64,000 bases of DNA from a virus (taxonomy: Duplodnaviria > Heunggongvirae > Uroviricota > Caudoviricetes): positions 1-64,000 of IMG/VR virus record IMGVR_UViG_3300045988_137643; one strand, 5' to 3'. This document shows positions 14,717-46,190 of the stretch, in pieces. The position numbers and the translations under genes were made by a program. The notes under the pieces are model-generated. The model had not been told where the DNA came from. It made no database searches and was given only the letters and a program-made list of their open reading frames with translations. Within the stretch, counting starts at the first letter, position 1; each line of letters starts with the position of its first letter.

Positions 14717-14771
14717 CCTGCTTCTGTATATATAAATAATAAGTAACTTATTAAATATATACGGAAGCAGG
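14717..14771. repeat. large (~55 bp) palindromic hairpin element with 17-bp perfect core TAATAAGTAACTTATTA; copy 1
   Basis: outer stem CCTGCTTCTGTATATAT/ATATATACGGAAGCAGG around the core; near-identical copy at 46136-46190. Confidence 0.75.
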
Positions 14772-14834
14772 CTTAGTAAGACATGCCAGACCTAATTAAA
14801 CACCCCAGAAAACAAGTTGGTTAGCAGATGCAGT

Positions 14835-14847
14835 AAACAAGTTGTTT
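14835..14847. promoter_or_regulatory. family A palindrome AAACAA-G-TTGTTT upstream of terS
   Basis: perfect 6+1+6 inverted repeat; weaker copy at 14808-14822. Confidence 0.55.
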
Positions 14848-14887
14848 TAGAGCGCATGGACGCGCTCTGTGTGTTTTAGAGGGATCT

Positions 14888-15520
14888 ATGACGGTCGAAA
14901 AAGACGAGGTAAAAACTCGCCTGACACCAGCGGAGTGGGCCGAAGCTGAAGCCAAATGGACGTCAGGCGAATATACACTCTCAAAGCTGGAGGAAGAGTA
15001 CGGCATTCGTCGTGAAACACTCTCCAGACATTTCAAAAAGCGAGGATTAGAGAAAGGCGCGGACTCTGTTGGGAAGATGGTTCGTGAGTCTCTTAAATCT
15101 GACGCAGAGCTTCGCGCTAAAGCCCGTGCGGAAAAGATAGAAGAACGTCGTACACGTTATGACGGCTGGGCGTATGCGTTGGGGCAGATGGTGATGGTCG
15201 AAGTCACTACGGCCAAACGTGATGGTAAGCCTTTAGGGGCGATTGAGGATTCTCTCAAGAGCTTACAGAGAGCCAGTAATACCCTTGCAAAATGCTTTGA
15301 AGTTTCGTCCAAAGCATTGGGCATGGATCATGCGGAAAATGACGAGGAAGAAATTCCGAACCTGGTATTTGGTGAGCTTACGCCTTCCCAGGTGGCGAAA
15401 TTACGTCAGGAAGACGACGAGCCTGAAATCATCGATGACGAATTGCTTGAGACGTTGGAAGAAGAAGCTCTAAGCGAATTTGATGCGACAGATGATGGAA
15501 GTGAAGGGGAGGACGAATAA
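14888..15520 (+). CDS. terS: terminase small subunit (putative)
   Basis: position immediately upstream of the large terminase with ATGA-type overlap; HTH-like N-terminus and highly acidic C-terminus. Confidence 0.6.
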   Translation: MTVEKDEVKTRLTPAEWAEAEAKWTSGEYTLSKLEEEYGIRRETLSRHFKKRGLEKGADSVGKMVRESLKSDAELRAKARAEKIEERRTRYDGWAYALGQMVMVEVTTAKRDGKPLGAIEDSLKSLQRASNTLAKCFEVSSKALGMDHAENDEEEIPNLVFGELTPSQVAKLRQEDDEPEIIDDELLETLEEEALSEFDATDDGSEGEDE

Positions 15521-16776
15521 TGGCAATCCCATCCTCGCTCAGTCTTGTGCAACTGCATTCTGGACAGATGAAAGTCTTCCAGTCTCCGCATCGATTTAAA
15601 GTTGTTTGTGCTGGTCGACGCTGGGGAAAATCCCGGTTGTCGATCTCCACTATTATTCGTGCGGCGGCAAAGGAAAAAAAGCAAAGGGTCTGGTATGTCG
15701 CTCCTACTTACCAGATGGCTCGCCAGATTTTGTGGGACGATCTACAGGAAGTTCTGCCTCGTAAGTGGGTTAGGAAAAAGAACGACACCACGATGACAAT
15801 CGTGTTGAAGAACGGTTCGGAGATCGCCCTCAAAGGTGCTGATAAGCCTGACACTCTGCGCGGCGTAGCGTTGCATTTTGTAGTGCTTGATGAATTTCAG
15901 GATATGAAGGCTGACACCTGGTACAAGGTGTTACGACCTACTCTTTCATCGACACGCGGCGGTGCACTGATCATTGGTACGCCAAAAGGCTTCTCGGAAT
16001 TTCACAAACTGTGGACTATAGGCCAGAACGTAGAGCTGCAAAGAAAGGGACAGTGGAAGAGCTGGCAGTTTGTAACTGCTGATTCTCCGTTTGTGCCTAC
16101 GGCGGAAATTGAAGCTGCTAAGAACGATATGGACCCTAAATCGTTCGCTCAGGAGTACCTGGCCAGCTTTGAAAATATGTCCGGGCGCGTTTACTACCCG
16201 TTCGATCGTAACGTGCATGTAAAACCGCTTCAGTTCAACCCTCGGTTGCCTATATGGGTAGGGCAGGACTTCAACATTGACCCGATGTCTTCCGTAATTT
16301 TGCAACCTCAGCCAAACGGTGAGCTATGGGCAATTGATGAACTGGTACTCTTTTCCTCTAACACGGCAGAGGTTTGTGATGAGCTTGAGAGACGCTTCTG
16401 GCGCTGGAAATCACAGATAACGGTATTTCCAGATCCGGCAGGTGCTTATCGCCAACATGCTCGCGGGGAGTCTGACGTCGACATATTCAAAGAGAAGGGA
16501 TTCTTACGTGTCGATTATTCGAAAAAGCACCCGCCAATTGCGGATCGTGTTAATGCTGTTAACCGAATGCTGATGACCGCATCTGGAGATATCCGGTTGT
16601 ATATCGATCCGAAGTGCAAGCATTTGATTGATTCACTGGAAAAAGTCATCTACAAGCCTGGAACACGAGATATGGATAAGACAGGTGGCATTGAGCATAG
16701 TGCAGACGCATTGGGCTATCCAGTACATCGTAGGTATCCAGTCAAAAACCGTGTTATTCTTGGTGGCTCTCGATAG
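15520..16776 (+). CDS. terL: terminase large subunit
   Basis: N-terminal ATPase with deviant Walker A CAGRRWGKS and VVLDEFQD Walker B; followed by portal gene. Confidence 0.85.
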   Translation: MAIPSSLSLVQLHSGQMKVFQSPHRFKVVCAGRRWGKSRLSISTIIRAAAKEKKQRVWYVAPTYQMARQILWDDLQEVLPRKWVRKKNDTTMTIVLKNGSEIALKGADKPDTLRGVALHFVVLDEFQDMKADTWYKVLRPTLSSTRGGALIIGTPKGFSEFHKLWTIGQNVELQRKGQWKSWQFVTADSPFVPTAEIEAAKNDMDPKSFAQEYLASFENMSGRVYYPFDRNVHVKPLQFNPRLPIWVGQDFNIDPMSSVILQPQPNGELWAIDELVLFSSNTAEVCDELERRFWRWKSQITVFPDPAGAYRQHARGESDVDIFKEKGFLRVDYSKKHPPIADRVNAVNRMLMTASGDIRLYIDPKCKHLIDSLEKVIYKPGTRDMDKTGGIEHSADALGYPVHRRYPVKNRVILGGSR

Positions 16777-16802
16777 GTAAGTAATTATCTAAGGTTATTC
16801 AA

Positions 16803-18377
16803 ATGGAATTGAACGACAAACAAATTAAGGATCTGGTGGCGCGACGCCACCCGGAATACGAAAAGAAAAAAGAACATTGGGACTTCCTCGCCAGCACTTA
16901 CGCTGGCGGGCGTGGTTGGTTTACAGACAATATCTTTCGTTACTTTAAAGAGGGAGATCAGGAGTTTAAGGAGCGAGTTGAGCGTGCTTATCGCTTCAAC
17001 CACACTCGTGAGGTGGTAAACCTCATCAACAAATATCTCTTTAAAGAAGACATTCATAGAAATATCGAAGAGGCACCAGAGCAGATCCGCAATTTCTGGA
17101 AACGTGCGACTCGCCAGAATGCCTCTATTGACTCATTTATGGCCGCTATTGATTTGCAGTCGTCTATTTACGGTCGCATATGGGTTGTTGTCGATAGCAC
17201 GATGAGTGGTGATGTTGAGTCAGTAGCTGACGAGAAAAAGAAAGATGCTCGCGCCTACGCCTACTGGATTTCACCTCAGCAAATGCTGGATGTGGCATGG
17301 GACGACGACGGGAATATGTTGTGGGCGTTAATTGTGGAAGTCGCTCGTGATGACGCAGATCCTTTTACTTCTACAGGTCAGGAATACCAACGTTATCGTC
17401 TGTGGACACAAAACGAGTGGTATCTGTTCCGTGAGGAAGTGAAGAAGGGCGCTGGTGGAGCAGGTCGCCGTCAGGCAAAAGTTATTTTAGAGGATAGCGG
17501 TGAGCATAATCTCGGCGTAGTTCCTGTGTTTCCTGTTGATTGTATTGGAGAAAGTGAATCACCGTATTTCAGCCCATCGTTGATCGATGATATCGCTTAT
17601 CTTGATCGTGCGGTTGCAAACTATCTGTCAAACCTTGATGCCATTATTCAGGATCAGACATTTAGCCAGTTGGCTATACCGGTACAGTCGCTTTTACCTG
17701 GTGATGAAAACCACACTAAAGTGCTTGAAATGGGCACAAAGCGAGTCTTCACCTACGATTCTGAAGGTGGAAACCAGCCGTTTTATCTGTCACCAGACCC
17801 GAAACAAGCTCAGATGATCATCACTACGATTAAGACGGTGATTAACGAAATCTACCATTCAGTTGGTGTAGCTGGTGAGCGAACGAAGCAGGACAACGCA
17901 CAGGGAATCGATAACTCATCTGGTGCCGCAAAAATGTATGACTTCCAGCGTGTAAATAGCTTGCTTGTCACAAAAGCAGAGCGTCTGGAAAGGGCTGAAC
18001 GCCAAATCATGCTACTGGTTGCGAAATGGATGGGGGTAGATCTGGACGAAGACCACTCTTTAATAGCGTATCCAGAAAGTTTCGATATTCGTGGCCTTAC
18101 AGATGAATTTTCTGTTGCCGAGAAACTGTCATTACTTCAGGCACCGGACTCTGTACGTCGTCACCAGATGGAAATGCTTATTGAGAAGATTTTCCCGAAC
18201 ATTACTGAGGCGATGAAAAAGGAATTTGATAAAGATCTCTTGAATTTTCCGCCAAAAAATGATCTAAATACCCTTGAAAATAAGTCAGTACTTACTTATG
18301 ATCGTGGTGCAGCCCAAGAAAGCGGGCAAGATCAACCCCGAGGGAATGGGGACTCATCTACTCAAGAGAACGAGTGA
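16803..18377 (+). CDS. portal protein
   Basis: 524 aa ORF directly after terL, before scaffold and capsid genes. Confidence 0.75.
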   Translation: MELNDKQIKDLVARRHPEYEKKKEHWDFLASTYAGGRGWFTDNIFRYFKEGDQEFKERVERAYRFNHTREVVNLINKYLFKEDIHRNIEEAPEQIRNFWKRATRQNASIDSFMAAIDLQSSIYGRIWVVVDSTMSGDVESVADEKKKDARAYAYWISPQQMLDVAWDDDGNMLWALIVEVARDDADPFTSTGQEYQRYRLWTQNEWYLFREEVKKGAGGAGRRQAKVILEDSGEHNLGVVPVFPVDCIGESESPYFSPSLIDDIAYLDRAVANYLSNLDAIIQDQTFSQLAIPVQSLLPGDENHTKVLEMGTKRVFTYDSEGGNQPFYLSPDPKQAQMIITTIKTVINEIYHSVGVAGERTKQDNAQGIDNSSGAAKMYDFQRVNSLLVTKAERLERAERQIMLLVAKWMGVDLDEDHSLIAYPESFDIRGLTDEFSVAEKLSLLQAPDSVRRHQMEMLIEKIFPNITEAMKKEFDKDLLNFPPKNDLNTLENKSVLTYDRGAAQESGQDQPRGNGDSSTQENE

Positions 18378-18398
18378 TAAGTAACAAAAGGAATTTTT

Positions 18399-19286
18399 AT
18401 GAATCTGTGGCAAATGCTTTTGGCCCGTCGTGGTCTGATGGATGTCGCTGAAGCGCATGAGCGTGGAGGCGCTGGCGGTGTAGCTGCTGATAATGAGCAG
18501 AGTACACAAGATCCTGACAAACAGGGTGAACAAAAAGAGCAGCCGAAGGGCGATGACGAATACGCTGGCATGACTCAGGAAGAGTTACTGGCCGAACTTC
18601 GTAAAACCAAGAAAGCTGGTGCTGAACTGCTGAAGGAGAACATGAAGCGCAAAGAGAAAGAGCGCACATTGGCCGATCAGCTTGCTCAGTACGGTGATAT
18701 CGATCCGGCGCGTGCTCGCCAGCTTTTAGAAGCTGAACAGGCCGCAGAAAACGCACGTCGTGAGGCGGAGCAAGCTGAACTGGAGCGTCGTGGTGAGTTC
18801 GATGCTGTTAAAAAACAGATGATCGAAGCACACCAGGCAGAGCTGGCACAGCGTGACGAACGTTATGCAGCACTGGAAAGTGAAAACGCATCACTGAAAT
18901 CTCAATTAGTCGAGATGACCGTGGGCGCTTCCTTCAGTAACTCTCTCTTCCTACGTGACAAAGTTCTGATGACTCCGGCAAAAGCCCGCGTGATCTACGG
19001 TTCTCATTTTGAAGTGGGTGAAGACGGTAGCGTAGTGGGTTATGACAAACCGGCAGGTCATAAAGAACGAGCTGTTCTGGTTGACGGTGAAGGTAAGCCG
19101 TTGCCGTTTGAATCCGCGATTGAACGCATTGTGCGGGCAGATCCGGAAGCTGACGCATTGATGCGTAGCGAAGCCAAGCAGGGTGTAGGCTCACATTCCA
19201 AATCGACCTACACAATATCCCAACCGAAGAACAAGTCGACTATGGATAAGTTGGCCTCCGGTCTGGGGAAAATTGGACTTAAGTAA
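18399..19286 (+). CDS. scaffolding protein (putative)
   Basis: position between portal and major capsid; charged, helix-prone central region. Confidence 0.5.
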   Translation: MNLWQMLLARRGLMDVAEAHERGGAGGVAADNEQSTQDPDKQGEQKEQPKGDDEYAGMTQEELLAELRKTKKAGAELLKENMKRKEKERTLADQLAQYGDIDPARARQLLEAEQAAENARREAEQAELERRGEFDAVKKQMIEAHQAELAQRDERYAALESENASLKSQLVEMTVGASFSNSLFLRDKVLMTPAKARVIYGSHFEVGEDGSVVGYDKPAGHKERAVLVDGEGKPLPFESAIERIVRADPEADALMRSEAKQGVGSHSKSTYTISQPKNKSTMDKLASGLGKIGLK

Positions 19287-19311
19287 CATCTAAATCAAAG
19301 GGAATTGATAG

Positions 19312-20187
19312 ATGCCATTACTGCGTGAAGAAGCTGAAAAGCTGTCTAACAACGAACTCGAACAGGGTGTGATCGAAACTATCATTGATCGCGATGACCT
19401 GTTTGCCATCCTGCCTTTTATGAAAATTAATTCAAAGGCATATCTGTACAATCGTGAAAAAACGCTGAGTGAAGCTACCTTCATCGACGTTAACGACACC
19501 ATCCCTGAAGGTGCAGCAACCTTCGAAGAATGCGTTGCGAAACTGCGTATTCTGGCTGGTGACGTAGACGTTGATAAATTCCTGGCAACCACTATGGCCG
19601 ACACCAATAACCAGTTGGCTATTCAGGTTCGTCAGAAAGTTAAAGGTCTGGCTCGTGCGTTCCGCCGCAATCTGATTTTGGGTGACTCCAGCACCAACAA
19701 CAAAGCGTTTGACGGCATTCCACGCCTGATGCACGCAGATCAGAAGATCGATATCGCCGGTGCATCTATGACTTTCTCTATGTTCGACGAACTGGTCGAT
19801 GCGGTGAAAGATCTTGGTGCTGACTGCATCATGATGCGTTCAGAGCACCTTCGTGCTTACCGTGCGCTGCTGCGTACAGTAAACGTAGGTCCGTCTGAAA
19901 TCATGATGGAGAACTTTGGTCGTCCGATGCTGTGTCATAACGGCGTTCCGTTCATCATCAACGACTTCATCCCGACCGATGCTGGCAAAGCAAGCATCTA
20001 CTGCCTGCATCTGTCAGAAGAGAACGGCGTTACTGGTCTGTATGGCGGCGACAACGCAGGTATCGTTGTTGAAAACATTGGTACTGTACAGAACAAAGAC
20101 GCAGTACGTACCCGTGTGAAGTGGTACTGCTCTCTGGCGAATAAGCACGATAAGGCTATCGCTGCACTGACCAATGTAAAAATTTAA
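19312..20187 (+). CDS. major capsid protein (putative)
   Basis: 291 aa ORF in the canonical position; strong terminator downstream. Confidence 0.65.
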   Translation: MPLLREEAEKLSNNELEQGVIETIIDRDDLFAILPFMKINSKAYLYNREKTLSEATFIDVNDTIPEGAATFEECVAKLRILAGDVDVDKFLATTMADTNNQLAIQVRQKVKGLARAFRRNLILGDSSTNNKAFDGIPRLMHADQKIDIAGASMTFSMFDELVDAVKDLGADCIMMRSEHLRAYRALLRTVNVGPSEIMMENFGRPMLCHNGVPFIINDFIPTDAGKASIYCLHLSEENGVTGLYGGDNAGIVVENIGTVQNKDAVRTRVKWYCSLANKHDKAIAALTNVKI

Positions 20188-20218
20188 TCAGTGTAGTAGA
20201 TAAGTAGTTATCTATGTT

Positions 20219-20247
20219 AAAGGGTGGGCTATACGCCCACCCTTTTT
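20219..20247 (+). terminator. rho-independent-type terminator after major capsid gene
   Basis: AGGGTGGGC-TATAC-GCCCACCCT followed by TTTTT. Confidence 0.8.
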
Positions 20248-20260
20248 GTAGGAGCAAGAA

Positions 20261-21181
20261 ATGCCAGAACAAAAGATGAAGATTACGGAAGAGGTATTTT
20301 CGGATTTTACGGGGCATATGTGCCGCGCCGGATTTACCAATTCTATCTCCGATGAACCTTTAACCGAGCGGCAACAAAGTCAGCTATCTGCTTGTTTGCA
20401 GGCGGTTCCCCTCTCCCAATCCGTAAACATAACCCCGGCTTCACCGTCAGTTTTGGTTGGGAAAACTGTTCAACTTAGTGCAGGTATTAGTATGGGTAAG
20501 AGTGCCAGTTCATTCACCTGGAAGTCAGCCAATGATCAAATTGCAACCGTTAACGGCACTGGATTAGTAACTGGCGTAGCACCAGGCAAAGTAAAAATTA
20601 CTGCAACTGATCAGGAAACCCAGCTTTCCGCGTCAGTGGAAGTCACCGTAAATCCGGTAGCCGTTCAATCCGTAACGGTAACGCCAGACTCAACCTCTGT
20701 TGAGAAAGGGAAATCAGTCAGTCTGAAAGCGAATGTTCAGCCGTCAAATGCGACGAATAAGGCTGTTACCTGGTCTTCTAAAAATGAAGACAAGGCAACG
20801 GTAGACCAGAGCGGGAACGTTACTGGTGTAGAAGTTGGCACTGCGACGATTGAGATCGTTTCCCAAGATGGCAGCAAAAAGGCAACTGCAACGGTGGAAG
20901 TAACTGCGCCTGTTGTGGCTGTTACTGGTGTCGAAATCGACCCAAATAGCACAACCGTTGAGGCAAACAAAACTGTTCAGCTGACCGCAAATGTCGAGCC
21001 TGCAGGAGCAACAAATAAAACCGTTACTTGGGAATCCAAAAATACCGAGTTTGCAACGGTGGATAGCGAAACCGGTGTTGTAACTGGCGTTGCGGCTGGT
21101 ACTGCCACAATCGAGGTTACTACCCAAGATGGTAGCCACAAAGCGACAGCGACCGTAGAAGTCACTGCTGCACAGGAATAA
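20261..21181 (+). CDS. Ig-like (Big_2-type) repeat protein, probable capsid decoration protein
   Basis: three tandem ~90-aa Ig-like repeats (VTGVEIDPNSTTVEANKTVQLTANVEPAGATNKTVTW...); AGGAG RBS. Confidence 0.6.
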   Translation: MPEQKMKITEEVFSDFTGHMCRAGFTNSISDEPLTERQQSQLSACLQAVPLSQSVNITPASPSVLVGKTVQLSAGISMGKSASSFTWKSANDQIATVNGTGLVTGVAPGKVKITATDQETQLSASVEVTVNPVAVQSVTVTPDSTSVEKGKSVSLKANVQPSNATNKAVTWSSKNEDKATVDQSGNVTGVEVGTATIEIVSQDGSKKATATVEVTAPVVAVTGVEIDPNSTTVEANKTVQLTANVEPAGATNKTVTWESKNTEFATVDSETGVVTGVAAGTATIEVTTQDGSHKATATVEVTAAQE

Positions 21182-21225
21182 TCAATATTGGGCGGCGAAA
21201 GCCGCCCATGTAGAGAGAATGCGTT

Positions 21226-22493: not shown

Positions 22494-22572
22494 CGCCAGT
22501 CGCATTATTTACTTTTGGTCGAAAGGGTTTTTGGCCAGTAATGAGAGCGACCGACAACAACAGAGAGAGAGC

Positions 22573-23381: not shown

Positions 23382-23382
23382 T

Positions 23383-23766: not shown

Positions 23767-23774
23767 GTTAATTG

Positions 23775-37190: not shown

Positions 37191-37238
37191 CTTAATGGCG
37201 GGCAAGGATAGCTCGCCAAATCAAGGAGCATATTCAAC

Positions 37239-40200
37239 ATGTGGTACAGGGAAGGTACTATCACATTTACACAGGGTAGCAATACTCTGGTTGGGGTTGG
37301 GACAGCCTGGAACGTAACAGCTAATGGTGTGTTGCCGGGGATGATCGTCATTGGCCCCGACAATAAGCTGTATGAGATCAAGCGCGTAACAAGCGATACG
37401 AATATTGTTCTCTCAGAACCTTATACCGGCGAAACTCAGTCTGAAGTTCCGTGCCGAATCATTACGACCTATGAAGGCGACTTAACACAGTTTAGCGCGC
37501 GCTTTACTGCGCTAATGTCGCGTATGTCGGCTGATTCCAAGTCCATGCGCAGTTGGTTGACTGCGCTGGATGAGGTGACAATCGAGCGTGAAGACGGTAC
37601 AGAAGTGACCGTTAAGCCGCTGATGCAGATCGTCAACGAGCACAACGAAAACGTTGAGTGGTATAAAAATAACACCGATGCGATTGACGCTGCTGGCGAC
37701 AAAGCTCGTGAGGCGGCGGCCAGTGCTGCCGCAGCAGCAGAAAGCGCCAATACCGCTGGAGAAAAAGCCTCTCAAGCGTCTCAAAGTGCATCCGCTGCGG
37801 CTTCCTCACAAAGTGCTGCAAGTGCGAGTGCAACTGCTGCGAAAAAATCTGAAACAAACGCAGAATCAGCATATGTCGCGGCAGCAGAATCAGCATCTGT
37901 AGCGTCGACTAAAGCATCGGAGGCGGCCACATCTGCGTCCAGTGCCTCTGCATCTAAGGATGCGGCTAAAGCATCAGAGACTAACGCGTCATCGAGTGCA
38001 AACGCGGCGGCATCATTTGCAACAGAAGCTGAAAATTCGTCTAAGGCAGCAAAAGCGTCAGAGACAAACGCAAAAGCATCTGAAACGGCAGCCGGGCAGA
38101 GTGCATCGTCTGCAAACAGTTCGAAATCTGCGGCAGAAGCGTCAGCAAGCGCAGCCTCAGCAAGTGCGGATAGTGCTTCATCAAGTGCAACTGCGGCAGG
38201 AAAATCTGCGGAAAGCGCGTCGTCATCAGCGACAACAGCTACCGCAAAAGCGACTGAGGCGACGAATCAGGCTACAGCCGCTAAAAATTCAGCATCGGCA
38301 GCAAAATCCTCTGAAACAAATGCAAAGACTTCAGAAGACAATGCCGCTTCCTCTAAGGCTGCAGCTGCTGAATCTGCAAGTTCTGCGTCAGCATCAGCCA
38401 CCTCGGCGTCTGCTTCAAAGGATGAGGCGACCAAGCAGGCATCAGCTGCGAAGGGTAGTGCTTCAACGGCATCCACGAAAGCAACAGAGGCGGCAGGCAG
38501 TGCGACGGCTGCATCTCAGAGCAAAACTGCTGCTGAATCCGCTGCGGCCCGTGCAGAAGCTGCCGCTGATCGTGCTGAAGAGATTGCCGGTGCAGTTGCG
38601 ATGGAAGACGCAAGCCTTACAACTAAAGGTGTTGTGAAACTTAGCAGTGCTGTCGATAGCACCAGCGAATCACTGGCTGCAACTCCAAAGGCAGTTAAAG
38701 CTGCGAATGACAATGCGAATAGCCGATTGGCGAAGAACCAGAATGGTGCTGATATACCAGGTAAGGATACCTTCACGAAAAATATTGGCGCTGGGCGAGC
38801 ATTTGGAGGCTCTGTAAGCACAACAGCAGGAAACTGGACTACGGCACAGTTTGTCGAATGGTTGGACTCTCAAGGGGCGTTTAATCATCCGTACTGGATG
38901 TGTAAAGGCTCATGGTCGTATGGCAACAACAAAATCATTACTGATACTGGTTGTGGCGATATTCATCTTGCCGGGGCAGTAATTGAGGTAATGGGGATAA
39001 AGTCCGCAATGACGATCCGCGTTACCACACCAACAACATCTAGCGGTGGTGGTACTGCTAACGCTCAATTTACTTATATTAACCACGGGACAGATTATTC
39101 TCCAGGCTGGCGACGAGACTACAATACAAAATACAAACCTACGCCATCGGATATAGGTGCATTATCAACATCAGGAGGGACGGTTTCAGGTCCGTTGTCT
39201 GTTACTGGTGGATTAACTGGTTCATTGAATGGCAATGCGAGTACCGCCACGAAATTGCAGACTGCAAGAACTATCGGCGGCGTGGCCTTCGATGGATCTG
39301 CGAACATAAATTTGCCTGGTGTAAACACGGCAGGTAATCAGAGCACTACTGGTAATGCCGCAACCGCTACAAAACTTCAAACGGCAAGAACGATTGGTGG
39401 CGTTTCATTTAACGGAACTGCCAACATCGACTTGCCCGGAGTTAACAAAGCTGGCAACCAAAGCACCACAGGTAATGCTGCTACAGCTACTAAATTGCAG
39501 ACAGCAAGAACCATCGGTGGTGTTAGCTTCGATGGCACTGCGAATATTAATTTGCCTGGTGTTAATGCTGCCGGTAATCAGAACACTACCGGTAACGCGG
39601 CCACAGCGACCAAGTTGCAAACTGCTAGAACTATTAACGGGGTGTCGTTTAACGGCTCTGCGAATATTTCAATACCAACAATTACGTCCAGAGGACGCGT
39701 TACTGCGCTCACAGGTACAACACAAGGTGCTGCGACTGGATTGCAGATGTACGAGGCATATAACAATGGCTACCCTTCGACTTACGGGAATGTGCTTCAT
39801 CTTAAGGGCGCAACGGCCGTTGGTGAAGGTGAGTTGTTCATAGGTTGGAGCGGTACAAGTGGCGCTCATGCACCTGTACATGTACGTTCGCGACGAGATA
39901 CGGATACATCCAGTTGGTCTGAATGGGCGCAAGTTTATACGTCCAAAGACTCAATTCCAGGTGTCAATGCCACCGGTAATCAGAACACTACTGGCAACGC
40001 AGCCTCTGCAACGAAGTTGCAGACAGCCAGAACAATTGGAGGTGTGTCGTTTAATGGTACCGCCAATATTAACTTGCCGGGTGTTAATATAGCGGGTAAT
40101 CAGAATACGACTGGTAACGCAGCTTCAGCCACGAAGTTACAAACGGCTCGTACTATCGGTGGTGTTAGTTTTAACGGTACAGCCAATATTAACTTACCTG

Positions 40201-40895
40201 GTGTGAATACGACCGGTAATCAGAACACTACTGGTAATGCTGCAACCGCCACAAAATTGCAGACAGCAAGGAAAATTGCTGGTGTGGCGTTTGATGGCTC
40301 TGCCGATATTACTTTGACTGCGGCTAACCTTAATGCTTATACGAAAACTGAGGTAACAAACCTTCTAAGTTCCTATGCAAGCAGATCATCACTGACAGGC
40401 TATAGTGGCAACCTGGATATTATCGCTGAAACACTGGTTGTCAAATCAGGCGGTAGTGGAGGGTTTGCTATATGGGATATTGGCACAACTACTAGCGGTG
40501 CCAATATGTACATTGATCCAAACCCAGGTATCAATACAGTTTGGCGTTCAACATCTTCAAGGCGCTATAAAAAGGATATTGAAACATTACAAGATCGATA
40601 TGCTGATGAACTTTTGTCATTAAGACCTGTTTGGTATCGTTCAATTTGTCGAGGTGACCGAAAGGATTGGGGGTATTACGGCCTTATTGCTGAAGAGGTT
40701 GGTGAGATTGCCCCGCAATATGTCCATTGGCGTGAACCAACAAATAATGATTCTCCAGAAGATATTTCCTCAAATGGTATGGTCGCTGAAGGGGTGATGT
40801 ATGAGCGTTTGGTTGTACCACTCATTCATCATATTCAGCAATTGACCAAAAGGGTTGAGGAGCTTGAAACGAAGTTAAATTCACCTAAAGAATAA
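37239..40895 (+). CDS. tail fibre protein with C-terminal intramolecular-chaperone (peptidase S74-like) domain
   Basis: Ala/Ser-rich N-terminal region, eight ~39-aa tandem repeats (GNQNTTGNAATATKLQTARTIGGVSFNGTANINLPGVN), C-terminal SSRRYKKDIE...LRPVWYR segment typical of self-cleaving chaperone domains. Confidence 0.8.
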   Translation: MWYREGTITFTQGSNTLVGVGTAWNVTANGVLPGMIVIGPDNKLYEIKRVTSDTNIVLSEPYTGETQSEVPCRIITTYEGDLTQFSARFTALMSRMSADSKSMRSWLTALDEVTIEREDGTEVTVKPLMQIVNEHNENVEWYKNNTDAIDAAGDKAREAAASAAAAAESANTAGEKASQASQSASAAASSQSAASASATAAKKSETNAESAYVAAAESASVASTKASEAATSASSASASKDAAKASETNASSSANAAASFATEAENSSKAAKASETNAKASETAAGQSASSANSSKSAAEASASAASASADSASSSATAAGKSAESASSSATTATAKATEATNQATAAKNSASAAKSSETNAKTSEDNAASSKAAAAESASSASASATSASASKDEATKQASAAKGSASTASTKATEAAGSATAASQSKTAAESAAARAEAAADRAEEIAGAVAMEDASLTTKGVVKLSSAVDSTSESLAATPKAVKAANDNANSRLAKNQNGADIPGKDTFTKNIGAGRAFGGSVSTTAGNWTTAQFVEWLDSQGAFNHPYWMCKGSWSYGNNKIITDTGCGDIHLAGAVIEVMGIKSAMTIRVTTPTTSSGGGTANAQFTYINHGTDYSPGWRRDYNTKYKPTPSDIGALSTSGGTVSGPLSVTGGLTGSLNGNASTATKLQTARTIGGVAFDGSANINLPGVNTAGNQSTTGNAATATKLQTARTIGGVSFNGTANIDLPGVNKAGNQSTTGNAATATKLQTARTIGGVSFDGTANINLPGVNAAGNQNTTGNAATATKLQTARTINGVSFNGSANISIPTITSRGRVTALTGTTQGAATGLQMYEAYNNGYPSTYGNVLHLKGATAVGEGELFIGWSGTSGAHAPVHVRSRRDTDTSSWSEWAQVYTSKDSIPGVNATGNQNTTGNAASATKLQTARTIGGVSFNGTANINLPGVNIAGNQNTTGNAASATKLQTARTIGGVSFNGTANINLPGVNTTGNQNTTGNAATATKLQTARKIAGVAFDGSADITLTAANLNAYTKTEVTNLLSSYASRSSLTGYSGNLDIIAETLVVKSGGSGGFAIWDIGTTTSGANMYIDPNPGINTVWRSTSSRRYKKDIETLQDRYADELLSLRPVWYRSICRGDRKDWGYYGLIAEEVGEIAPQYVHWREPTNNDSPEDISSNGMVAEGVMYERLVVPLIHHIQQLTKRVEELETKLNSPKE
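39231..40320 (+). repeat. in-frame tandem repeats (~117 bp / 39 aa, 8 copies, one interrupted) in tail fibre gene
   Basis: GNQNTTGNAATATKLQTARTIGGVSFNGTANINLPGVN repeated with minor variation. Confidence 0.75.
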
Positions 40896-40955
40896 ACAAC
40901 TTCAATCGGGGCTGGAACTAAACCAGCCCCTGCTTAAAAGTATAAGGATATATTT

Positions 40956-41210
40956 ATGAGCTATGGTGCACAGGTTTGGTCGCCATCAAGACAGGAGATG
41001 GTCGATGCGTTGGCCCCTGTTTATTACCTCGATTATTTTACTCCCTCTGGTTCTGGAAGTAGAACATATGATGTTGAGGCGGGATTGGGAATCGACTATT
41101 ACATAATGGACGTAACCAATGGGAAATACACAAGTCTTACGGTTTCTGGAAATACCATTTCATGGTCTGGAGCTAGTGGTAATTTAAACATATTGGTTTT
41201 TCAAAAATAA
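40956..41210 (+). CDS. hypothetical protein
   Basis: ORF track; downstream of fibre gene. Confidence 0.4.
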   Translation: MSYGAQVWSPSRQEMVDALAPVYYLDYFTPSGSGSRTYDVEAGLGIDYYIMDVTNGKYTSLTVSGNTISWSGASGNLNILVFQK

Positions 41211-41818
41211 TGTACGGAAGCAAGATATATCGATCTGACGGGAAGGTCTGGATGTCTCCTTCTTTGTCTCCTATCGTTTTTCAGAGAAAGCAGGTTGTTT
41301 CTTTATCCGGCGGGACAGAGTTTAACACCCAAATATCTCCAGATCGTTCACCGATGATTTTTGTTGCCTATTCGAAAGCTGTTTCATTAATAGCCAACAG
41401 AATAGTGCGTAACAACCAGGTGATTTACAGTTTCGGAGGTCAGGGTAGCGACTCTAGTGCCACGATATACGTATTTTCGAAAGGTATAGCCAAAAAAGAA
41501 ACTTGGGGCATGAGTTTTTTCAATGCACAAGGGGAGGAAATCTATAATACGGCAAATATCCCACTTTCATTTACCTTTCTTAATAATACGGAGTGGAACA
41601 GCTCTGGAGGGCATGTTTTTGATTACCCACCAGCGATAATCCCAACATATGCGAATGTGTTCGCTGTTCCAGTACCGGGCGGAGCCATGACAATGGTTTA
41701 TGGATATGCGGCATATGGAAATACTGTTAGCTCGATATTCGTAAACCAACTTAATGGCGGCCATAGTTTTAGCGTAAATGGCAGAGTACCGGTAATAAAT
41801 AGAAATCTGTATAACTGA
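41210..41818 (+). CDS. hypothetical protein, possible fibre-associated component
   Basis: ORF track; TAATG start/stop overlap with upstream ORF. Confidence 0.45.
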   Translation: MYGSKIYRSDGKVWMSPSLSPIVFQRKQVVSLSGGTEFNTQISPDRSPMIFVAYSKAVSLIANRIVRNNQVIYSFGGQGSDSSATIYVFSKGIAKKETWGMSFFNAQGEEIYNTANIPLSFTFLNNTEWNSSGGHVFDYPPAIIPTYANVFAVPVPGGAMTMVYGYAAYGNTVSSIFVNQLNGGHSFSVNGRVPVINRNLYN

Positions 41819-41825
41819 TGAGTAA

Positions 41826-42059
41826 ATGATGAAAAGATTATTTCTAACAATAGCTGTTGTTCTCTCTCTTACTGGCTGCCAGAAATTGCCGACACCTATA
41901 TGTTATGGTGAGGCTATCATTGGTGGACAGGAGACAGTCATACCTATATATGCTGTTAAAAAGGTTAACGGCTATACCTTATACAAAGCGGGTAGCATCT
42001 ATAACTGGCGATGGGTTGGAGTAGGTGCTTTCTCATCTGTGCGTTGCAATGCTGAATGA
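41826..42059 (+). CDS. small lipoprotein
   Basis: signal peptide with lipobox LTGC (MMKRLFLTIAVVLSLTGC); sits directly after the fibre genes. Confidence 0.55.
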   Translation: MMKRLFLTIAVVLSLTGCQKLPTPICYGEAIIGGQETVIPIYAVKKVNGYTLYKAGSIYNWRWVGVGAFSSVRCNAE

Positions 42060-42128
42060 TAAGTAAGTACACACCTACAACAAGAAGGTGAAATGTGATA
42101 TAAATCCGCCATCCCGATTTGACTTTTC

Positions 42129-42464
42129 ATGGAGGAAAACATGTCGAACGAGATGGCGGGCGTTACAACAGAGCAAGTTGAGCGTATTGCCGCGATCGTT
42201 GCTCGGGAGGTTGTTGGCAAATTAGGCAAAGAGCTACGTGAAGAAATTGGCCAGGAGGTCAATGATCAGCTGAAAACCTACTTTGGTGATATGACCCCGG
42301 CGCAACATAGTATTCAACACTCCAACCTGGACAAGCTCCTTAACCGGTTAGATTCCATCTCCAGTGGGTTCTTTGGCGGCATTGTTTCTAAAATAACGTC
42401 GTTCATTATTACCGCACTGCTTTTGGGGTTAGCCGCGTATGGCGTAAAAAATGGACTGCAATAA
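42129..42464 (+). CDS. membrane protein of lysis cassette (holin-like?)
   Basis: single C-terminal hydrophobic helix; position upstream of spanin genes. Confidence 0.4.
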   Translation: MEENMSNEMAGVTTEQVERIAAIVAREVVGKLGKELREEIGQEVNDQLKTYFGDMTPAQHSIQHSNLDKLLNRLDSISSGFFGGIVSKITSFIITALLLGLAAYGVKNGLQ

Positions 42465-42477
42465 CAGGAGATCAAGG

Positions 42478-43170
42478 ATGAAGACTCCGAGAGGCATTCG
42501 TAATAATAACCCCGGTAATCTTGATAAAGGATCACCGTGGCAAGGTCTGGTTGCGAATCCAGACGAACCGCGCTTTTGCACGTTTAAAGACCCTGTTTGG
42601 GGGATTCGTGCGCTGGCGGTGACTCTAATTACCTACCACGACAAACGTCGCGCAAAAGACGGCTCAAGTATCGATACCATTCGTGAAGTTATTGAACGTT
42701 GGGCACCGCCGAATGAAAACAACACTGACGCCTACATTAATGAGGTGTCTAAAGCCGTTGGTGTAACCGCAGACATGATCATCGATCTGCATGATTACGA
42801 CATCCTTCGACCTTTGGTTGAGGCAATCATTCGCCACGAGAATGGCCGGGGGCCGCTAAAAACGCTGAACACCTGGTATGCGGCAGAAGTTATTGAGGAA
42901 GGTCTGCGTCGAGCTGGCGTTGTTAAGCCGGTGAAAACCGTGAAGGCTGTTCCTGTAACTAAAGAAACAGCAGGCGCAACTGTTACAGCAGGTATTGGTC
43001 TGGCGCAACTGGCCGATGTTATGCCGCAGGTTTCCGCTGCTATGGATAAGGCACAAGGCCATATCTCTAGCGGGGATACAGTACGCATCATCTTCGGTAT
43101 TGCCACTATTGTTGTGGCCGGATTCATTGCCTGGTCGCAGGTAAGAAAACACCAGAAAGGGATGGTCTAA
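42478..43170 (+). CDS. membrane-anchored protein of lysis cassette (possible endolysin; fold not recognised)
   Basis: ATG 42478 after AGGAG RBS; C-terminal hydrophobic anchor; position immediately before the Rz-like gene. Confidence 0.35.
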   Translation: MKTPRGIRNNNPGNLDKGSPWQGLVANPDEPRFCTFKDPVWGIRALAVTLITYHDKRRAKDGSSIDTIREVIERWAPPNENNTDAYINEVSKAVGVTADMIIDLHDYDILRPLVEAIIRHENGRGPLKTLNTWYAAEVIEEGLRRAGVVKPVKTVKAVPVTKETAGATVTAGIGLAQLADVMPQVSAAMDKAQGHISSGDTVRIIFGIATIVVAGFIAWSQVRKHQKGMV

Positions 43171-43171
43171 T

Positions 43172-43423
43172 ATGCTAGGCAGCCTGATGACAAAGCTAAA
43201 AGTTGCTTTGATTACGCTGGCTGCCGTTCTTTTCGTTCTGGTCGGCGCTTACACGATGGGCGGGAATGCAGCACGACGAGCAATGGAAGAGAAGGCAAAA
43301 CAGGAAGACAGAAAACGACTTCAAAGCACAGTGGACGTCAAAAATGAAACACTTGATGAGTTACGGCGCAAGGATGCTTCTTCTGTTCATCATGAGTTGC
43401 ACAATAAGTGGTTGCGTGATTAA
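43172..43423 (+). CDS. i-spanin (Rz-like)
   Basis: N-terminal TM helix followed by charged coiled-coil-like segment; overlapping lipoprotein ORF in another frame. Confidence 0.55.
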   Translation: MLGSLMTKLKVALITLAAVLFVLVGAYTMGGNAARRAMEEKAKQEDRKRLQSTVDVKNETLDELRRKDASSVHHELHNKWLRD

Positions 43424-43574
43424 GCCTCAACCCGCTGGTGTGCTTTTCTGCGATGCGGCTACACCGCTATACATCAGTCGTGATGATCTCATGACCGAAG
43501 AGACTGAAAGAGAGGTGCTTTTTCACAATATGATAGGGGAGCGATTGTGTGGATGGGGCAGAAAATTACCATAA
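43344..43574 (+). CDS. o-spanin (Rz1-like lipoprotein), overlapping the i-spanin gene
   Basis: lipobox ISGC after hydrophobic stretch, different frame overlapping the 3' end of 43172..43423; exact start uncertain. Confidence 0.5.
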   Translation: MKHLMSYGARMLLLFIMSCTISGCVIKPQPAGVLFCDAATPLYISRDDLMTEETEREVLFHNMIGERLCGWGRKLP

Positions 43575-43750
43575 CAGAAGTGGAGTTTTCTAACATAAAA
43601 TTTGCATATTATTAGAGCACAAGGTAGATTTAAGGCACGGGTGTCAAGTAAATCATCCGTTGCTTTAAAGCTGCGAAGCATTATCGTAGCCTCTAAATCC
43701 CTTTGGGGTCGCCGCAATAACATACACTTGTTAACGGCTAAGGTGGAAAC

Positions 43751-44170
43751 ATGCTAAATTATCATGACAATACGCGTTCTATGCAGACGATCCGCACCAA
43801 TACTGCGGTTATCGACAGCTTTCCTATGCGTATTCACAACAGTGAAGACGCAGTAGAAGTGCGACGTATGTTGTGCCGTGAATCAGCTAACCGCCAGCAC
43901 TTCATCGTCACTTTTAAGAGCGATGTGGCGCGTGCCGAAAAGATCTCTAATTCTACGTCACTGGTTAAACCGTTGGCCGAGGTTGTCGCTAACGGTAAAC
44001 GAACCTCTTTTGTTTTAGATGTTGCTGAACAATATCCTGACTTGAAGTGTTTAGATCGTGATATTTCTTCACGAATCAAACAAGTTGTAGAGTCTTTTAT
44101 GAAGAAATTCTGTAAAATCGATGATATGGAACCATCAACGGCACAGAATACTTCATGGCACCATCTCTAA
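43751..44170 (+). CDS. hypothetical protein
   Basis: ORF track; overlaps downstream gene by 16 nt. Confidence 0.45.
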   Translation: MLNYHDNTRSMQTIRTNTAVIDSFPMRIHNSEDAVEVRRMLCRESANRQHFIVTFKSDVARAEKISNSTSLVKPLAEVVANGKRTSFVLDVAEQYPDLKCLDRDISSRIKQVVESFMKKFCKIDDMEPSTAQNTSWHHL

Positions 44171-44928
44171 TTGGTCAGGCGAACAGATTAATCCCTGAAA
44201 TAGAAGACTACAGCAAGGTCTTGTCTGAAATGCCGAGAGCGACGAGAATTATCGCTCTCGGTGAGTTCTATTTTATCTCCCGAGGTTTCGATCTAATTCG
44301 ATTTACCGAATACGAGCTTGTTGATTCGGCCTATGAACGCTGTATTGTTGGCGAGTGTCTTGAGTCATGTGATCCTGATTACCAAGAGCAGGAAGTTAAG
44401 CGACTCAAACGTGCTGGTTACACACCTCTTGAGATAGGAGCAGAAATTGAATCCTACAAGTTGCATGTGGGGCAGTCAGTCCAAACAGTCTTCCGCGTGG
44501 CCTACTGCGAGTTTCCAATCAAGGATAAATCTGGAGTAAAAGTCAGCGCCAAGCAGATTAGAGGGGTTTTTACTCATGCTGATTATATGGGATTAGGCAT
44601 CGCAAGTTTTGCTTACCTTTATCTCGTAGATAAGTATCAGTACTTGGTTTGCGATACGTTACAGACGGTAAAAGGCGCAACTCTTTGGGCTGTGAGTATG
44701 CGCAAACATGGACTGGTAGAAATTTACGATACGAAGAACGAAAATTTTATAGAGGAATTGGGTGAGGATGCCTGTGGCGTAAGTGGTTTTATTCCGTGGG
44801 ATATTGGTAAGTCTGACGGAGGCCAGATGCGAAGACGTGAAGAGTGGGGGACTAATAAAATCAATCTCACCCCAGGTGCTTGTACTCATATAGTGAACAT
44901 TCTGAGTAAACGATCTATGAATCCATAA
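44155..44928 (+). CDS. hypothetical protein
   Basis: ORF track, 257 aa; strong terminator directly downstream. Confidence 0.5.
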   Translation: MAPSLIGQANRLIPEIEDYSKVLSEMPRATRIIALGEFYFISRGFDLIRFTEYELVDSAYERCIVGECLESCDPDYQEQEVKRLKRAGYTPLEIGAEIESYKLHVGQSVQTVFRVAYCEFPIKDKSGVKVSAKQIRGVFTHADYMGLGIASFAYLYLVDKYQYLVCDTLQTVKGATLWAVSMRKHGLVEIYDTKNENFIEELGEDACGVSGFIPWDIGKSDGGQMRRREEWGTNKINLTPGACTHIVNILSKRSMNP

Positions 44929-44950
44929 ACCCGCTACGGCGGGTTTTTTT
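44928..44950 (+). terminator. rho-independent-type terminator
   Basis: AACCCGC-TACG-GCGGGTT followed by TTTTTTT. Confidence 0.8.
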
Positions 44951-45029
44951 GTTATTAAGCCCCCCTATGTACCTATCATTAAACCTTTACACCGCAGCCG
45001 TAGGCATTTAGGCTATATCACATATAAGA

Positions 45030-45042
45030 AAACAAGTTGTTT
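45030..45042. promoter_or_regulatory. family A palindrome AAACAA-G-TTGTTT upstream of parA
   Basis: followed by GATAAT hexamer and AAGGGA RBS. Confidence 0.6.
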
Positions 45043-45077
45043 CAGACGATAATTATATACGCAAAGGGAACTCTCCA

Positions 45078-45746
45078 ATGACCAAGATCTTTGTGGTTGG
45101 CGGCACAAAGGGCGGGCCTGGCAAATCCACCGTTGCCCAGCAAATTGCCGTTTGCCTGAAAGTCAAAAAGAAGAAGAAGGTTTATATCACCGATATAGAT
45201 ATTCAGCGCACGACAACGAGCTGGTGTGAAGACCGTCGACAGAACGAAGACCTTGAGCTGATTCCTTTTGCATACGTTCAGGATGACATCATTAAGCACC
45301 TAAAATCGCTTCAGGGTAGAGCTGAGTATGTAGTGGTAGATGCTGGTGGCTTCGACTCCGAAATTCAGCGACAAGCGATGCTGATGGCTGACGTTATCAT
45401 TATCCCGCTGCGTCCTAAGCGTCGTGATTTGAAATCTTTACGTGACATCGATCCTATTATCGACAATGTTCGCAATGTAAACGATAAAGTGAAGGTCCGC
45501 GCGGTCATGAACCAGTGCCCGGCTTTGCCATCACAAGTGTCTCGCATTCTGGCGGCTAAAGAGATTGTCGAGACGTTTGGCATCGAGTCTGCGCCTGTCA
45601 ATCTATATAACCGCAACGTCTACGATGATGCGGAAGAGTCTGGTCGTTCTATCTTTGAAATGACCGGTAGCGAGCGCGACAAAAAGGCGGAAGCCGAGTT
45701 TGAAGAATTTGTAGATTATCTGTTGAGTCTGGAGGAAGAAGAATAA
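45078..45746 (+). CDS. parA: ParA/MinD-family partition ATPase
   Basis: deviant Walker A GGTKGGPGKST; 222 aa without N-terminal HTH (type Ib-like); operator palindrome upstream. Confidence 0.85.
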   Translation: MTKIFVVGGTKGGPGKSTVAQQIAVCLKVKKKKKVYITDIDIQRTTTSWCEDRRQNEDLELIPFAYVQDDIIKHLKSLQGRAEYVVVDAGGFDSEIQRQAMLMADVIIIPLRPKRRDLKSLRDIDPIIDNVRNVNDKVKVRAVMNQCPALPSQVSRILAAKEIVETFGIESAPVNLYNRNVYDDAEESGRSIFEMTGSERDKKAEAEFEEFVDYLLSLEEEE

Positions 45747-46105
45747 TGTCCATGAAAATGGGTGACCTAGCAAAGCGCAAAGAGCCTGATGCACCGGCTA
45801 AGAACACAACTCCTTTGCGCCAACCAGTCAGACCACAGGGACGCCCGACTCGTGGCAAAGAGAAAATTAAAAGCCGCACAATGTCACTGGAAGACGAATA
45901 CTTCGAACTGCTGGAGATGATGAAGTTCATCCCTCGCTTCGAGAAATTCACCCGCTCTGATGTGATTCGTGCTGCTATTTTCCATCTTGCGGAGAAGACA
46001 CCGCAGGAAATCGAGGACATCGTGAAACTTAACGAGGCGATCACAGCTGCCGATGTAACGATGCGTACCGATGAAATCAAGCGAGAACTCATGAAAAAAG
46101 GCTGA
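45746..46105 (+). CDS. ribbon-helix-helix partition partner (ParG-like)
   Basis: ATGA-coupled to parA; C-terminal RHH-like segment; large palindrome 46136-46190 downstream. Confidence 0.6.
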   Translation: MSMKMGDLAKRKEPDAPAKNTTPLRQPVRPQGRPTRGKEKIKSRTMSLEDEYFELLEMMKFIPRFEKFTRSDVIRAAIFHLAEKTPQEIEDIVKLNEAITAADVTMRTDEIKRELMKKG

Positions 46106-46135
46106 CAACTTCCGGTCTGGCAGCTTCAATCAGAA

Positions 46136-46190
46136 CCTGTTTCTGTATTTAAATAATAAGTAACTTATTAAATATATATACGGAAGCAGG
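46136..46190. repeat. large palindromic hairpin element, copy 2, immediately downstream of partition operon
   Basis: same 17-bp core at 46154-46170 with flanking stem CCTGTTTCTGTA.../...TACGGAAGCAGG. Confidence 0.75.

Follow-up and report, generated by a model that had tools for sequence, protein, structure and literature searches.

The window analysed here is a stretch of 64,000 nucleotides (nt), positions 1 to 64,000 of the IMG/VR virus record IMGVR_UViG_3300045988_137643 (Caudoviricetes). It carries two copies of a long palindromic element, called here site 1 (14717–14771, 55 bp, CCTGCTTCTGTATATATAAATAATAAGTAACTTATTAAATATATACGGAAGCAGG) and site 2 (46136–46190, 55 bp, CCTGTTTCTGTATTTAAATAATAAGTAACTTATTAAATATATATACGGAAGCAGG). 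Judged by sequence identity, the window belongs to an SSU5-like phage-plasmid. It is 97–99% identical to the Escherichia phage-plasmids CMS-2020a, PhiR41_1 and Cyrano (= pLF82), ~80% to the Salmonella phage SSU5 and ~78% to the Klebsiella relatives.

Both elements lie just past the end of one gene block and ahead of another on the + strand. An 88-aa gene (phrog_900, 14426–14692, +) ends a ParB-like operon, and its stop codon is 24 nt before site 1. The first gene 3′ of site 1 is terS (14888–15520, +), encoding a small terminase or DNA-binding protein (phrog_867), and TerL (15520–16776, +) follows directly. Site 2 begins 30 nt past the stop codon of a 119-aa ribbon-helix-helix (RHH)-like gene (45746–46105) that together with ParA (45078–45746) makes up a type Ib-like partition operon (45078–46105, +). 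Downstream of site 2 are orf249 (phrog_2500, 46299–47048, +), the first gene of a helicase-primase module, and then a DnaB-like helicase and a primase.

The first-pass annotation had given these positions and this context, and in the window both are exact. The similarity of the copies is far above chance. The 17-nt core TAATAAGTAACTTATTA occurs exactly twice in the window, and with up to three mismatches on both strands it has 5 matches against 0.21 expected, a number reached by 0 of 100 shuffles. The core had been described as a perfect palindrome. Its two exact copies stand, but the palindrome is not strictly perfect: two 8-nt arms flank a free central base (8+1+8) and the reverse strand differs by one mismatch. 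The core of site 1 (14737–14753) is TAATAAGT-A-ACTTATTA, with A, G, C or T as the central base among relatives, and the core of site 2 spans 46154–46170.

The GC clamp and the AT-rich stem that had also been noted are present but imperfect. Site 1 has the arms CCTGCTTCTGTATA and TATACGGAAGCAGG, with AT-rich sequence between them. At site 2 the left arm is CCTGTTTCTGTAT, and its clamp CCTGTTTC sets a T:G against the right clamp. A small internal loop interrupts the arms, which are also unequal in TA-repeat number. Farther out, each element extends into a longer imperfect palindrome, 14695–14792 at site 1 with the outer boxes GGTCTGG(GAG) at 14695–14704 and CCAGACC at 14786–14792, and 46114–46215 at site 2 with GGTCTGG at 46114–46120 and CCAGAAC at 46209–46215. 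A repeat finder matched the two sites to each other in direct orientation (33 nt, 97%) and also in inverted orientation (73 nt, 81%). None of these palindromes has a strand assigned.

As RNA, each 64-nt element folds into a single hairpin, of −28.1 kcal/mol (z-score −7.9) at site 1 and −20.1 kcal/mol (z −5.7) at site 2. Over the copies examined, the elements alone reach −20 to −29 kcal/mol with the GC-rich 8–9-bp clamp as the stem base, a stable hairpin as expected of a terminator. With its flanks, site 1 becomes a ~98-nt hairpin (14695–14792) that is closed by the paired outer boxes GGTCTGG/CCAGACC, with −48.9 kcal/mol as RNA (z −10.3) and −24.9 as DNA (z −7.9). Site 2 with its flanks is weaker, −29.1 as RNA and −12.6 as DNA (z −2.7). 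Rfam has no family match for the element, only sub-threshold matches of a generic hairpin kind (miRNA precursor).

A third copy lies outside the window. The closest complete plasmid, NZ_AP025215.1 (110,874 bp, annotated circular), has three clamp-paired elements at 16,395, 46,724 and 78,852 in the window orientation, with intervals of 30.3, 32.1 and 48.4 kb. The window corresponds to about 29.7–97.5 kb of this map. The additional copy, site 0, is thus ~13 kb before the window start and ~30 kb upstream of site 1 (record positions 94,426–94,480; locus L161 ~14,426–14,480, minus strand). Its clamps are identical to those of the other copies and its centre is non-palindromic. It stands 3′ of a Dam methylase gene and was found in 80 related viral contigs (loci L162–L241).

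The three copies mark the borders of the main gene modules. From site 2 to site 0 run the replication and nucleotide-metabolism genes with repA, from site 0 to site 1 a block of small genes of accessory and regulatory kind, with the ParB-like operon as the last, and from site 1 to site 2 the virion, lysis, toxin-antitoxin, par and cargo genes. Every copy is located 13–45 nt past the stop codon of the last gene in a co-directional block and 100–145 nt before the next gene, regardless of what the upstream gene is.

The elements are widely conserved in place. A pattern scan of viral contigs yielded 118 loci, and diverged copies were read by folding and direct inspection. In 117 of the 118, the element has the site 1 or site 2 context with constant order and orientation of the flanking genes. 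The other one (L102) is an unrelated chance match within a coding region. Fifty-one related loci keep the element between the 88-aa gene and terS, and 65 keep it 137–145 nt upstream of orf249 homologues. It is also present in 260 of 5426 complete E. coli genomes (~5%), where 1041 of its 1043 places are on plasmids of ~100–190 kb and 2 on the chromosome. The median is 4 places per genome, equal to 2 detectable sites counted on both strands. The first-pass annotation had named conservation of only one copy in relatives as an outcome that would refute it; all are kept, with all three positions present in the E. coli, Salmonella and Klebsiella relatives.

What is conserved is an inverted pair of GC-rich arms flanking AT-rich DNA. 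Its genome positions are fixed, and the copies within one genome are alike. The consensus 14-nt arm is CCTGCTTCYGTATA, and two inverted arms around a 25–29-bp AT-rich centre make ~55 bp inside a weaker palindrome of ~100 bp. Among 90 unique variants, the clamp-to-clamp length is 49–57 bp with a median of 54–55 per site. Arm positions 1–3, 7 and 11 are invariant, and positions 4 and 12–14 are altered in single variants only. Positions 5, 6 and 8 are occasionally changed on both arms, as in CCTGTTTC/GAAACAGG at site 2 of pJN2-26, CCTGCGTC/GACGCAGG in L203 and CCTGCTTT/AAAGCAGG in L149 and L202; the L149 element is present with such compensated arms. The outer boxes, (G)GTCTGGGAG ... CTCCCAGAC(C), accompany all three sites and bring each to ~100 bp.

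The centre varies more. In the window it forms a good palindrome at both sites, and it is non-palindromic at site 0, at Cyrano site 2 and in the L131/L158 lineage, the last having perfect 15-bp arms around a 25-nt spacer. The 17-bp core is absent from site 0 and Cyrano site 2, where AT-rich non-palindromic sequence stands instead.

The SSU5-supergroup lineages have the arm variants CCTGCTTC, CCTGGCTC, CCTTGCTCCC and CCGTGCTCCC, and a GAGCCAGG variant is common to L132 at site 2 and L152 at site 1. In Raoultella, sites 1 and 2 have the right arm TTTATATATAT[C/G]GGAAGCAGGT in common and the left arm of site 1 has decayed. Xenorhabdus, Morganella and Moellerella show TATGGGAGCA(A/C)GG at all three positions, with the inverted partner 52–105 nt off across AT-rich DNA. 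At site 2 of Morganella and Xenorhabdus, a compact canonical terminator incorporates this arm motif, reading ATGGGAGCA..TGCTCCCAT and then TTTCTTTC. Unrelated strong hairpins occupy positions 1 and 2 in a K. pneumoniae lineage of 102 kb.

Site 2 is tied to the replication gene downstream rather than to the partition gene upstream. In relatives, its core centre keeps 137–145 nt to the orf249 start, while its distance to the RHH gene ranges from 60 nt (the window and L034) to more than 2 kb (~2 kb in L117, L028 and L036). One extra gene comes between the RHH gene and site 2 in Cyrano, and three do in SSU5 and pJN2-26. At least 10 unrelated sequences abut the same left arm of site 2, and the TCTGG of its outer box is kept in most of these otherwise unrelated left flanks. 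The gap itself (46106–46135) is empty in the window and holds from 0 to more than 2 kb of unrelated cargo in relatives (L005, L006, L008 and many IMG/VR loci).

The sites also appear to exchange sequence. One E. coli-type genome is a mosaic with an SSU5-type site 2 and another with an SSU5-type site 0, and in the E. coli lineage the inner arm of site 2 is of the site 1 type. These site types, the shared inner arm and the many left junctions together point to an exchange of sequence between the copies, which would account for their near-identity, and to a hotspot for cargo with the element at its border.

The sequence 3′ of the elements resembles that of terminators at two of the three sites. 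Directly 3′ of the right arm of site 2 is a T-tract (TCTTTTAAA, 46191–46199, +). In the 9 nt after the right arm, the mean T count is 5.5 at site 2 (27 unique variants) and 5.1 at site 0, compared with a background of 2.3. On the opposite strand, it is 3.0 at site 0 and 3.8 at site 2. A C-rich, G-poor, rut-like tract also follows site 2 (46191–46270, +), with 29 C and 7 G in 80 nt, the 99.9th percentile of the 80-nt windows of the whole stretch. The 80 nt after site 0 have 24 C and 11 G (97.5th percentile).

Expression data on a relative fit with these features. RNA-seq of LF82/Cyrano (PMC9928086, S1 table) gives log2 values of fragments per kilobase per million of 8.2–10.1 for parA, 9.1–10.8 for the RHH gene and 8.6–10.4 for the cargo gene CYRAN_30, and 2.3–4.2 for CYRAN_31, the orf249 homologue. 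As computed from that table, and for the relative rather than for the window genome, the fall from CYRAN_30 to CYRAN_31 is 6–7 log2 units, or at least 60-fold. The only structured element in the 193-nt gap between these two genes is the site 2 palindrome with its CTTTTAAAG tail. Site 0 sits in a silent region of the same data. No other experimental evidence bears on any candidate role, and what it favours is that site 2 terminates or insulates transcription.

We read the elements as terminator or insulator hairpins at the module boundaries, and put the probability of this reading at roughly 45%. Strong bidirectional terminators had been among the roles proposed at first pass. A terminator role is supported for sites 2 and 0 but not for site 1, and it looks directional for the + strand rather than bidirectional. 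We infer that the fall in transcripts at site 2 is due to the hairpin itself, and that sites 0 and 1 act alike.

Mechanistically, RNA polymerase coming from the upstream module would transcribe the element and the GC-rich stem base of 8–14 bp would close over the AT-rich interior. At sites 0 and 2, the hairpin would be followed by a U-tract and then by the C-rich, G-poor stretch, and the transcript would be released by intrinsic termination, possibly with the assistance of Rho. As the outcome the next module would stay silent, which means the replication genes beyond site 2 and the late genes beyond site 1. The latter would be silenced jointly with an ordinary intrinsic-terminator-like hairpin with TGTGTTTTAG in the terS leader (14848–14879, +), 77 nt after site 1. 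Incidentally, these conserved elements would also be the joints where relatives exchange cargo and modules.

Several observations weigh against this reading. Site 1 has no T-tract (mean 3.0 T of 9) and no C-rich tail (15 C and 15 G in the next 80 nt). The Cyrano RNA-seq falls across it by just 1–1.8 log2 units (2–3.5-fold) at near-background levels, and even at site 2 these data cannot tell hairpin termination from Rho termination or RNA processing. Ordinary terminators stand directly beside the element in L132 and L230–L236, and the other operon ends of the same genome use ordinary short terminators. Upstream of a distant orf249 homologue on a K. pneumoniae 102-kb plasmid (L157, ~3340–3385), the equivalent is an unrelated 40-bp perfect palindrome between divergent genes.

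The arms as well behave unlike a common terminator stem. Terminators are expected to have a short loop and a freely covarying stem, but some lineages (L131, L158 and Cyrano site 2) have 21–25-nt non-palindromic centres, and the arms are nearly invariant even among lineages with flanks 20–30% divergent. Arm position 9 shows all four Y:R combinations, C:A included. Covariation of the arms is not above that of shuffles, with 94.4% versus 93.7% of cells paired and 3 versus 1.3 ± 1.0 pairs changed on both sides, and so gives no proof of a structure. The right arm alone survives in L150, L151 and L230–L236, which suggests that the arm sequence matters on its own. A strand bias of G:U over A:C, used as a test of an RNA-level role, was uninformative, with 14 T:G and 14 C:A at position 9 of site 0. 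The terminator reading is not rated higher because site 1, the most stable and most conserved copy, is without the tail features, because of the adjacent ordinary terminators and the equivalent between divergent genes, and because the arms are conserved at the sequence level.

Because the arm sequence is conserved, site 1 is without a T-tract and single-arm lineages exist, the elements might instead be duplex-DNA sites read by a protein of the phage-plasmid, a reading that we hold tentatively as possible. They would be dispersed centromeres for ParA and the RHH protein, loading or operator sites for ParB_N (KorB-like) proteins, or repressor roadblocks. Each 14-bp arm would be a half-site, separated from the other by an AT-rich spacer able to bend or melt. 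Near-invariance of the arm at three sites over the E. coli, Salmonella and Klebsiella lineages despite their diverging flanks speaks for it, as do the retention of the right arm after loss of its partner and the change of the Xenorhabdus and Morganella arms together at all three sites. The core moreover resembles a motif, ATAAGTAAGTACTTACTTA, dispersed upstream of many genes, and no candidate centromere repeat array is found upstream of parA.

Other facts are difficult for such a protein site. The arm spacing is 25–29 bp in the Escherichia group but 52–105 bp in Xenorhabdus and Moellerella, and is unequal between the sites of one lineage; distances of 25–105 bp are more than a rigid dimer could bridge. 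The RHH β-strand is identical between lineages with different arms. The ParB-like genes are silent in the lysogen and so cannot serve plasmid partition. A parS or KorB system would have a 13–16-bp palindrome at every site, but the 17-bp core, which looks like a parS site, is missing at site 0 and Cyrano site 2 and has no similarity to TGTTNCACGTGAAACA.

The centromere adjoining the par operon, which the first-pass annotation had named first, is weakened, though it keeps some probability because the centromeres of N15 are dispersed palindromes. Site 2 is anchored to orf249 and not to the par operon, the copies are three and dispersed, and adjacency to the RHH gene is particular to the window. 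No short-box array of the type Ib centromeres was found in or around the elements or upstream of parA. A further idea is that of a dedicated cis system, in which one protein (the RHH adaptor, the paired ParB_N proteins or the 88-aa protein) would read the 14-bp arms at the three borders and couple segregation or genome-wide silencing to the control of read-through. This would make a new dispersed centromere or insulator of SSU5-like elements, but we consider it unlikely.

Known dispersed sites are partly comparable. The plasmid RK2 has dispersed KorB operator sites. The prophage-plasmid N15 has the dispersed palindromic centromeres IR1–4, according to the part of PMC7205306 that cites Ravin & Lane 1999. 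Like the elements here, these are few copies of one palindrome scattered on a replicon and beside operon starts. They are, however, 13–18-bp palindromes bound by ParB-family helix-turn-helix proteins, unlike the 55–100 bp here and the small RHH-like adaptor whose binding is a candidate one. The parH centromere of TP228, bound by the RHH protein ParG (PMC3130281), is similar in being ~100 bp, AT-rich and part of a partition system of ParA and a small RHH protein. Here, by contrast, there is no repeat array, the palindrome is downstream of the operon and cargo genes intervene in relatives.

Replication is another use of long palindromes. The elements could be DNA unwinding or cruciform sites where lytic replication or recombination starts, and a transcript ending there might prime the synthesis. 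Multiple origins of comparable kinds are the oriS palindromes of herpesviruses and the oriL/oriR pair of SPP1. GC clamps do flank an AT-rich centre, and site 2 is immediately upstream of the module of orf249 and the DnaB-like helicase and primase. Also, a long perfect palindrome (48 bp, unrelated) precedes a distant orf249 homologue in Methylobacterium soli (L138, 3893–3940), and the NZ_AP025215.1 genome encodes its own replisome with an SbcCD-like pair.

Yet the elements have no iterons or DnaA boxes, and orf249 has no similarity to any initiator. The plasmid origin (repA) is ~31 kb from the nearest copy, and the DNA-level hairpin energy at site 2 is weak, as given above. The cumulative GC skew climbs steadily and does not turn at any of the sites, although this is because nearly all genes are on one strand. 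On balance, an origin role is improbable.

Packaging was considered as well, with site 1 as the recognition site of the terminase (pac or cos) and the other copies as secondary sites. Site 1 is 117 nt upstream of terS, and the GenBank records of Cyrano (OV696614; L001/L002) and SSU5 (JQ965645; L003/L004) are linearised within it, just past the core. But each genome has three near-identical copies, and TerL matches Terminase_6N and Terminase_3 and no lambda-type terminase family. TerLs of this type are usually headful packagers, which speaks against cos but not against pac. The start of the Cyrano record is not independent, as Cyrano is plasmid pLF82 re-annotated by comparison with SSU5.

Moreover, a contig end falls less than 300 nt from a copy in at least 16 of the 118 draft-contig loci, the pattern that assembly breaks at a repeated palindrome should give. 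The record starts of SSU5 and Cyrano are probably such breaks and not physical genome ends, and a packaging site is very improbable. Short-read assemblies tend to break at the elements, and these record starts could be misread as physical ends. A search of the literature found no description of the element or of the SSU5 virion ends.

Finally, the elements might be targets of site-specific recombination by a plasmid tyrosine recombinase, an invertase or a telomere resolvase, or else mobile repeats like miniature inverted-repeat transposable elements (MITEs). The size of ~55 bp with nested inverted repeats recalls N15 telRL, the cargo hotspot adjoins site 2 with its many unrelated left junctions, and the copies exchange sequence. 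Still, no inversion or deletion between the copies was seen in ~200 related loci, so the recombination sites of the first-pass list are unlikely. The spacer far exceeds what suits tyrosine recombinases, and ~11 kb separate the recombinase gene from the nearest copy. The records are circular and have no annotated protelomerase. The E. coli matches are nearly all on plasmids, which shows no spreading. Taken as a whole, recombination targets or mobile repeats are the most improbable of the readings.

Two specific candidates of this kind are contradicted. Repeats of the repetitive extragenic palindromic (REP), enterobacterial repetitive intergenic consensus (ERIC) or MITE type are rejected because the element is not spread over chromosomes and 117 of 118 viral matches are in two SSU5-type contexts. 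The telRL/tos of N15-type linear plasmid prophages is a ~56-bp palindrome with a central core, 14-bp flanking inverted repeats and outer repeats. It resembles the element in size, palindromic core, 14-bp inverted repeats and outer repeats, but here the replicons are circular, there is no protelomerase gene and the three copies have an imperfect dyad. A protelomerase target of that type is rejected accordingly.

For the terminator or insulator reading, ordinary intrinsic terminators are the first standard. The likeness is in the GC-rich stem base with the T-tract after it (sites 0 and 2), in the position just past a stop codon and in the transcript drop at Cyrano site 2. The difference is in the stem of 24–27 bp with an AT-rich upper part, or the 21–25-nt loop in some lineages, in a sequence that is conserved rather than freely covarying and in site 1 being without a T-tract.

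A nearer parallel is offered by the promoter-early stem-loop (PeSL) cassettes of T4-like phages, terminator stem-loop repeats between gene blocks that mediate gene shuffling (PMC2839356, PMC4122927). Both are short conserved composite repeats with a terminator stem-loop between blocks, and unrelated genes are swapped there; a repeated terminator cassette at gene-exchange junctions is indeed what the at least 10 unrelated left flanks of site 2 and the mosaic site types show. Unlike PeSL, the elements have only three copies, at the major module borders and not in hyperplastic regions. They are also longer AT-rich palindromes (55 bp, or ~100 bp with the outer arms) with no sequence relation. For the early promoter attached in PeSL, the only candidate counterpart is a weak sigma-70-like match following site 2 (TTCCAA-17-TATCAT, 46235–46263), which was not reported by the scan tool.

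By analogy, the PeSL cassette is the closest functional counterpart of the boundary hairpin and the N15 IR1–4 centromeres are that of the protein-recognised site. What appears new here is an unusually long, sequence-conserved boundary hairpin in three copies, with a terminator role backed for one copy by the data of a relative.

Phage-plasmids of the SSU5-like type are frequent in Enterobacteriaceae; pHCM2 of S. Typhi is one, and others carry dfrA and carbapenemase genes. If the elements set transcription limits between the maintenance, replication and virion modules, they would help to hold the lytic genes silent during expression of the par and cargo genes. The acquisition of new cargo genes would likewise take place at a joint that they mark.

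Some features of the neighbouring proteins may be added. The 119-aa protein has a disordered basic N-terminal tail and then a strand-helix-helix pattern, and its low-confidence model (pLDDT 64) is consistent with an RHH fold. Neither it nor the 88-aa protein has a sequence match in PDB. The orf249 protein is all-helical by a confident model (pLDDT 85.6), with no Pfam family and no sequence or fold match in PDB.

The operon before site 1 (11501–14692) encodes two ParB_N-domain proteins, an ABC-type ATPase, a 296-aa protein and the 88-aa protein. The 296-aa protein is annotated elsewhere as an ATPase fused to an acetyltransferase, with no Pfam match here. This operon keeps its place beside terS in relatives out to Xenorhabdus, and in the lysogen of Cyrano it is silent. 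In Cyrano, CYRAN_123, the homologue of the 88-aa gene 14426–14692 upstream of site 1, is 4–8 times more abundant than the preceding CYRAN_122, the homologue of 13526–14416. An internal promoter or a hairpin-protected 3′ fragment could account for it.

In the terS leader (14807–14879), two AAACAAGTTG boxes are followed by the canonical terminator hairpin (14848–14869) and its TGTGTTTTAG, just before the ribosome-binding site of terS. This layout suggests that the late operon may be controlled by attenuation or antitermination.

Two other palindromic motifs are dispersed over the window. One, AGAAAACAAGTTGTTTT, occurs ~15 times, mostly 4–65 nt upstream of open reading frame (ORF) starts, including those of terS (two copies), parA and the helicase. 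Its + strand starts are 82, 952, 1003, 2875, 3359, 4262, 4313, 4942, 9846, 14807, 14832, 41285, 45027, 47057 and 58722, and it is probably an operator or promoter element. The other is the ATAAGTAAGTACTTACTTA motif mentioned above, found at 11482, 16773, 18280, 23771, 30264, 37172, 42059, 46276, 49710, 53228 and 56165. In 10 of these 11 occurrences it is 1–100 nt upstream of an ORF start, and the copy at 53228 precedes a cluster of three tRNA genes (54000–54243), the next called ORF being 1.1 kb away. Its half-site resembles the palindrome core TAATAAGT, so one factor might read both.

Repeats with a period of 120 nt (39195–40376, 61–74% identity to the reference copy) lie within a 1218-aa ORF (37239–40895), a probable tail-fibre gene by its position and by the tail-protein annotation of a related plasmid. 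At 6051–6084 and 6544–6577 are 88%-identical copies of an ordinary terminator-like sequence with a GC stem and a T-run (AAAGCGCCCATAGTGGGCGCT...), which indicates that the genome reuses conventional terminators too.

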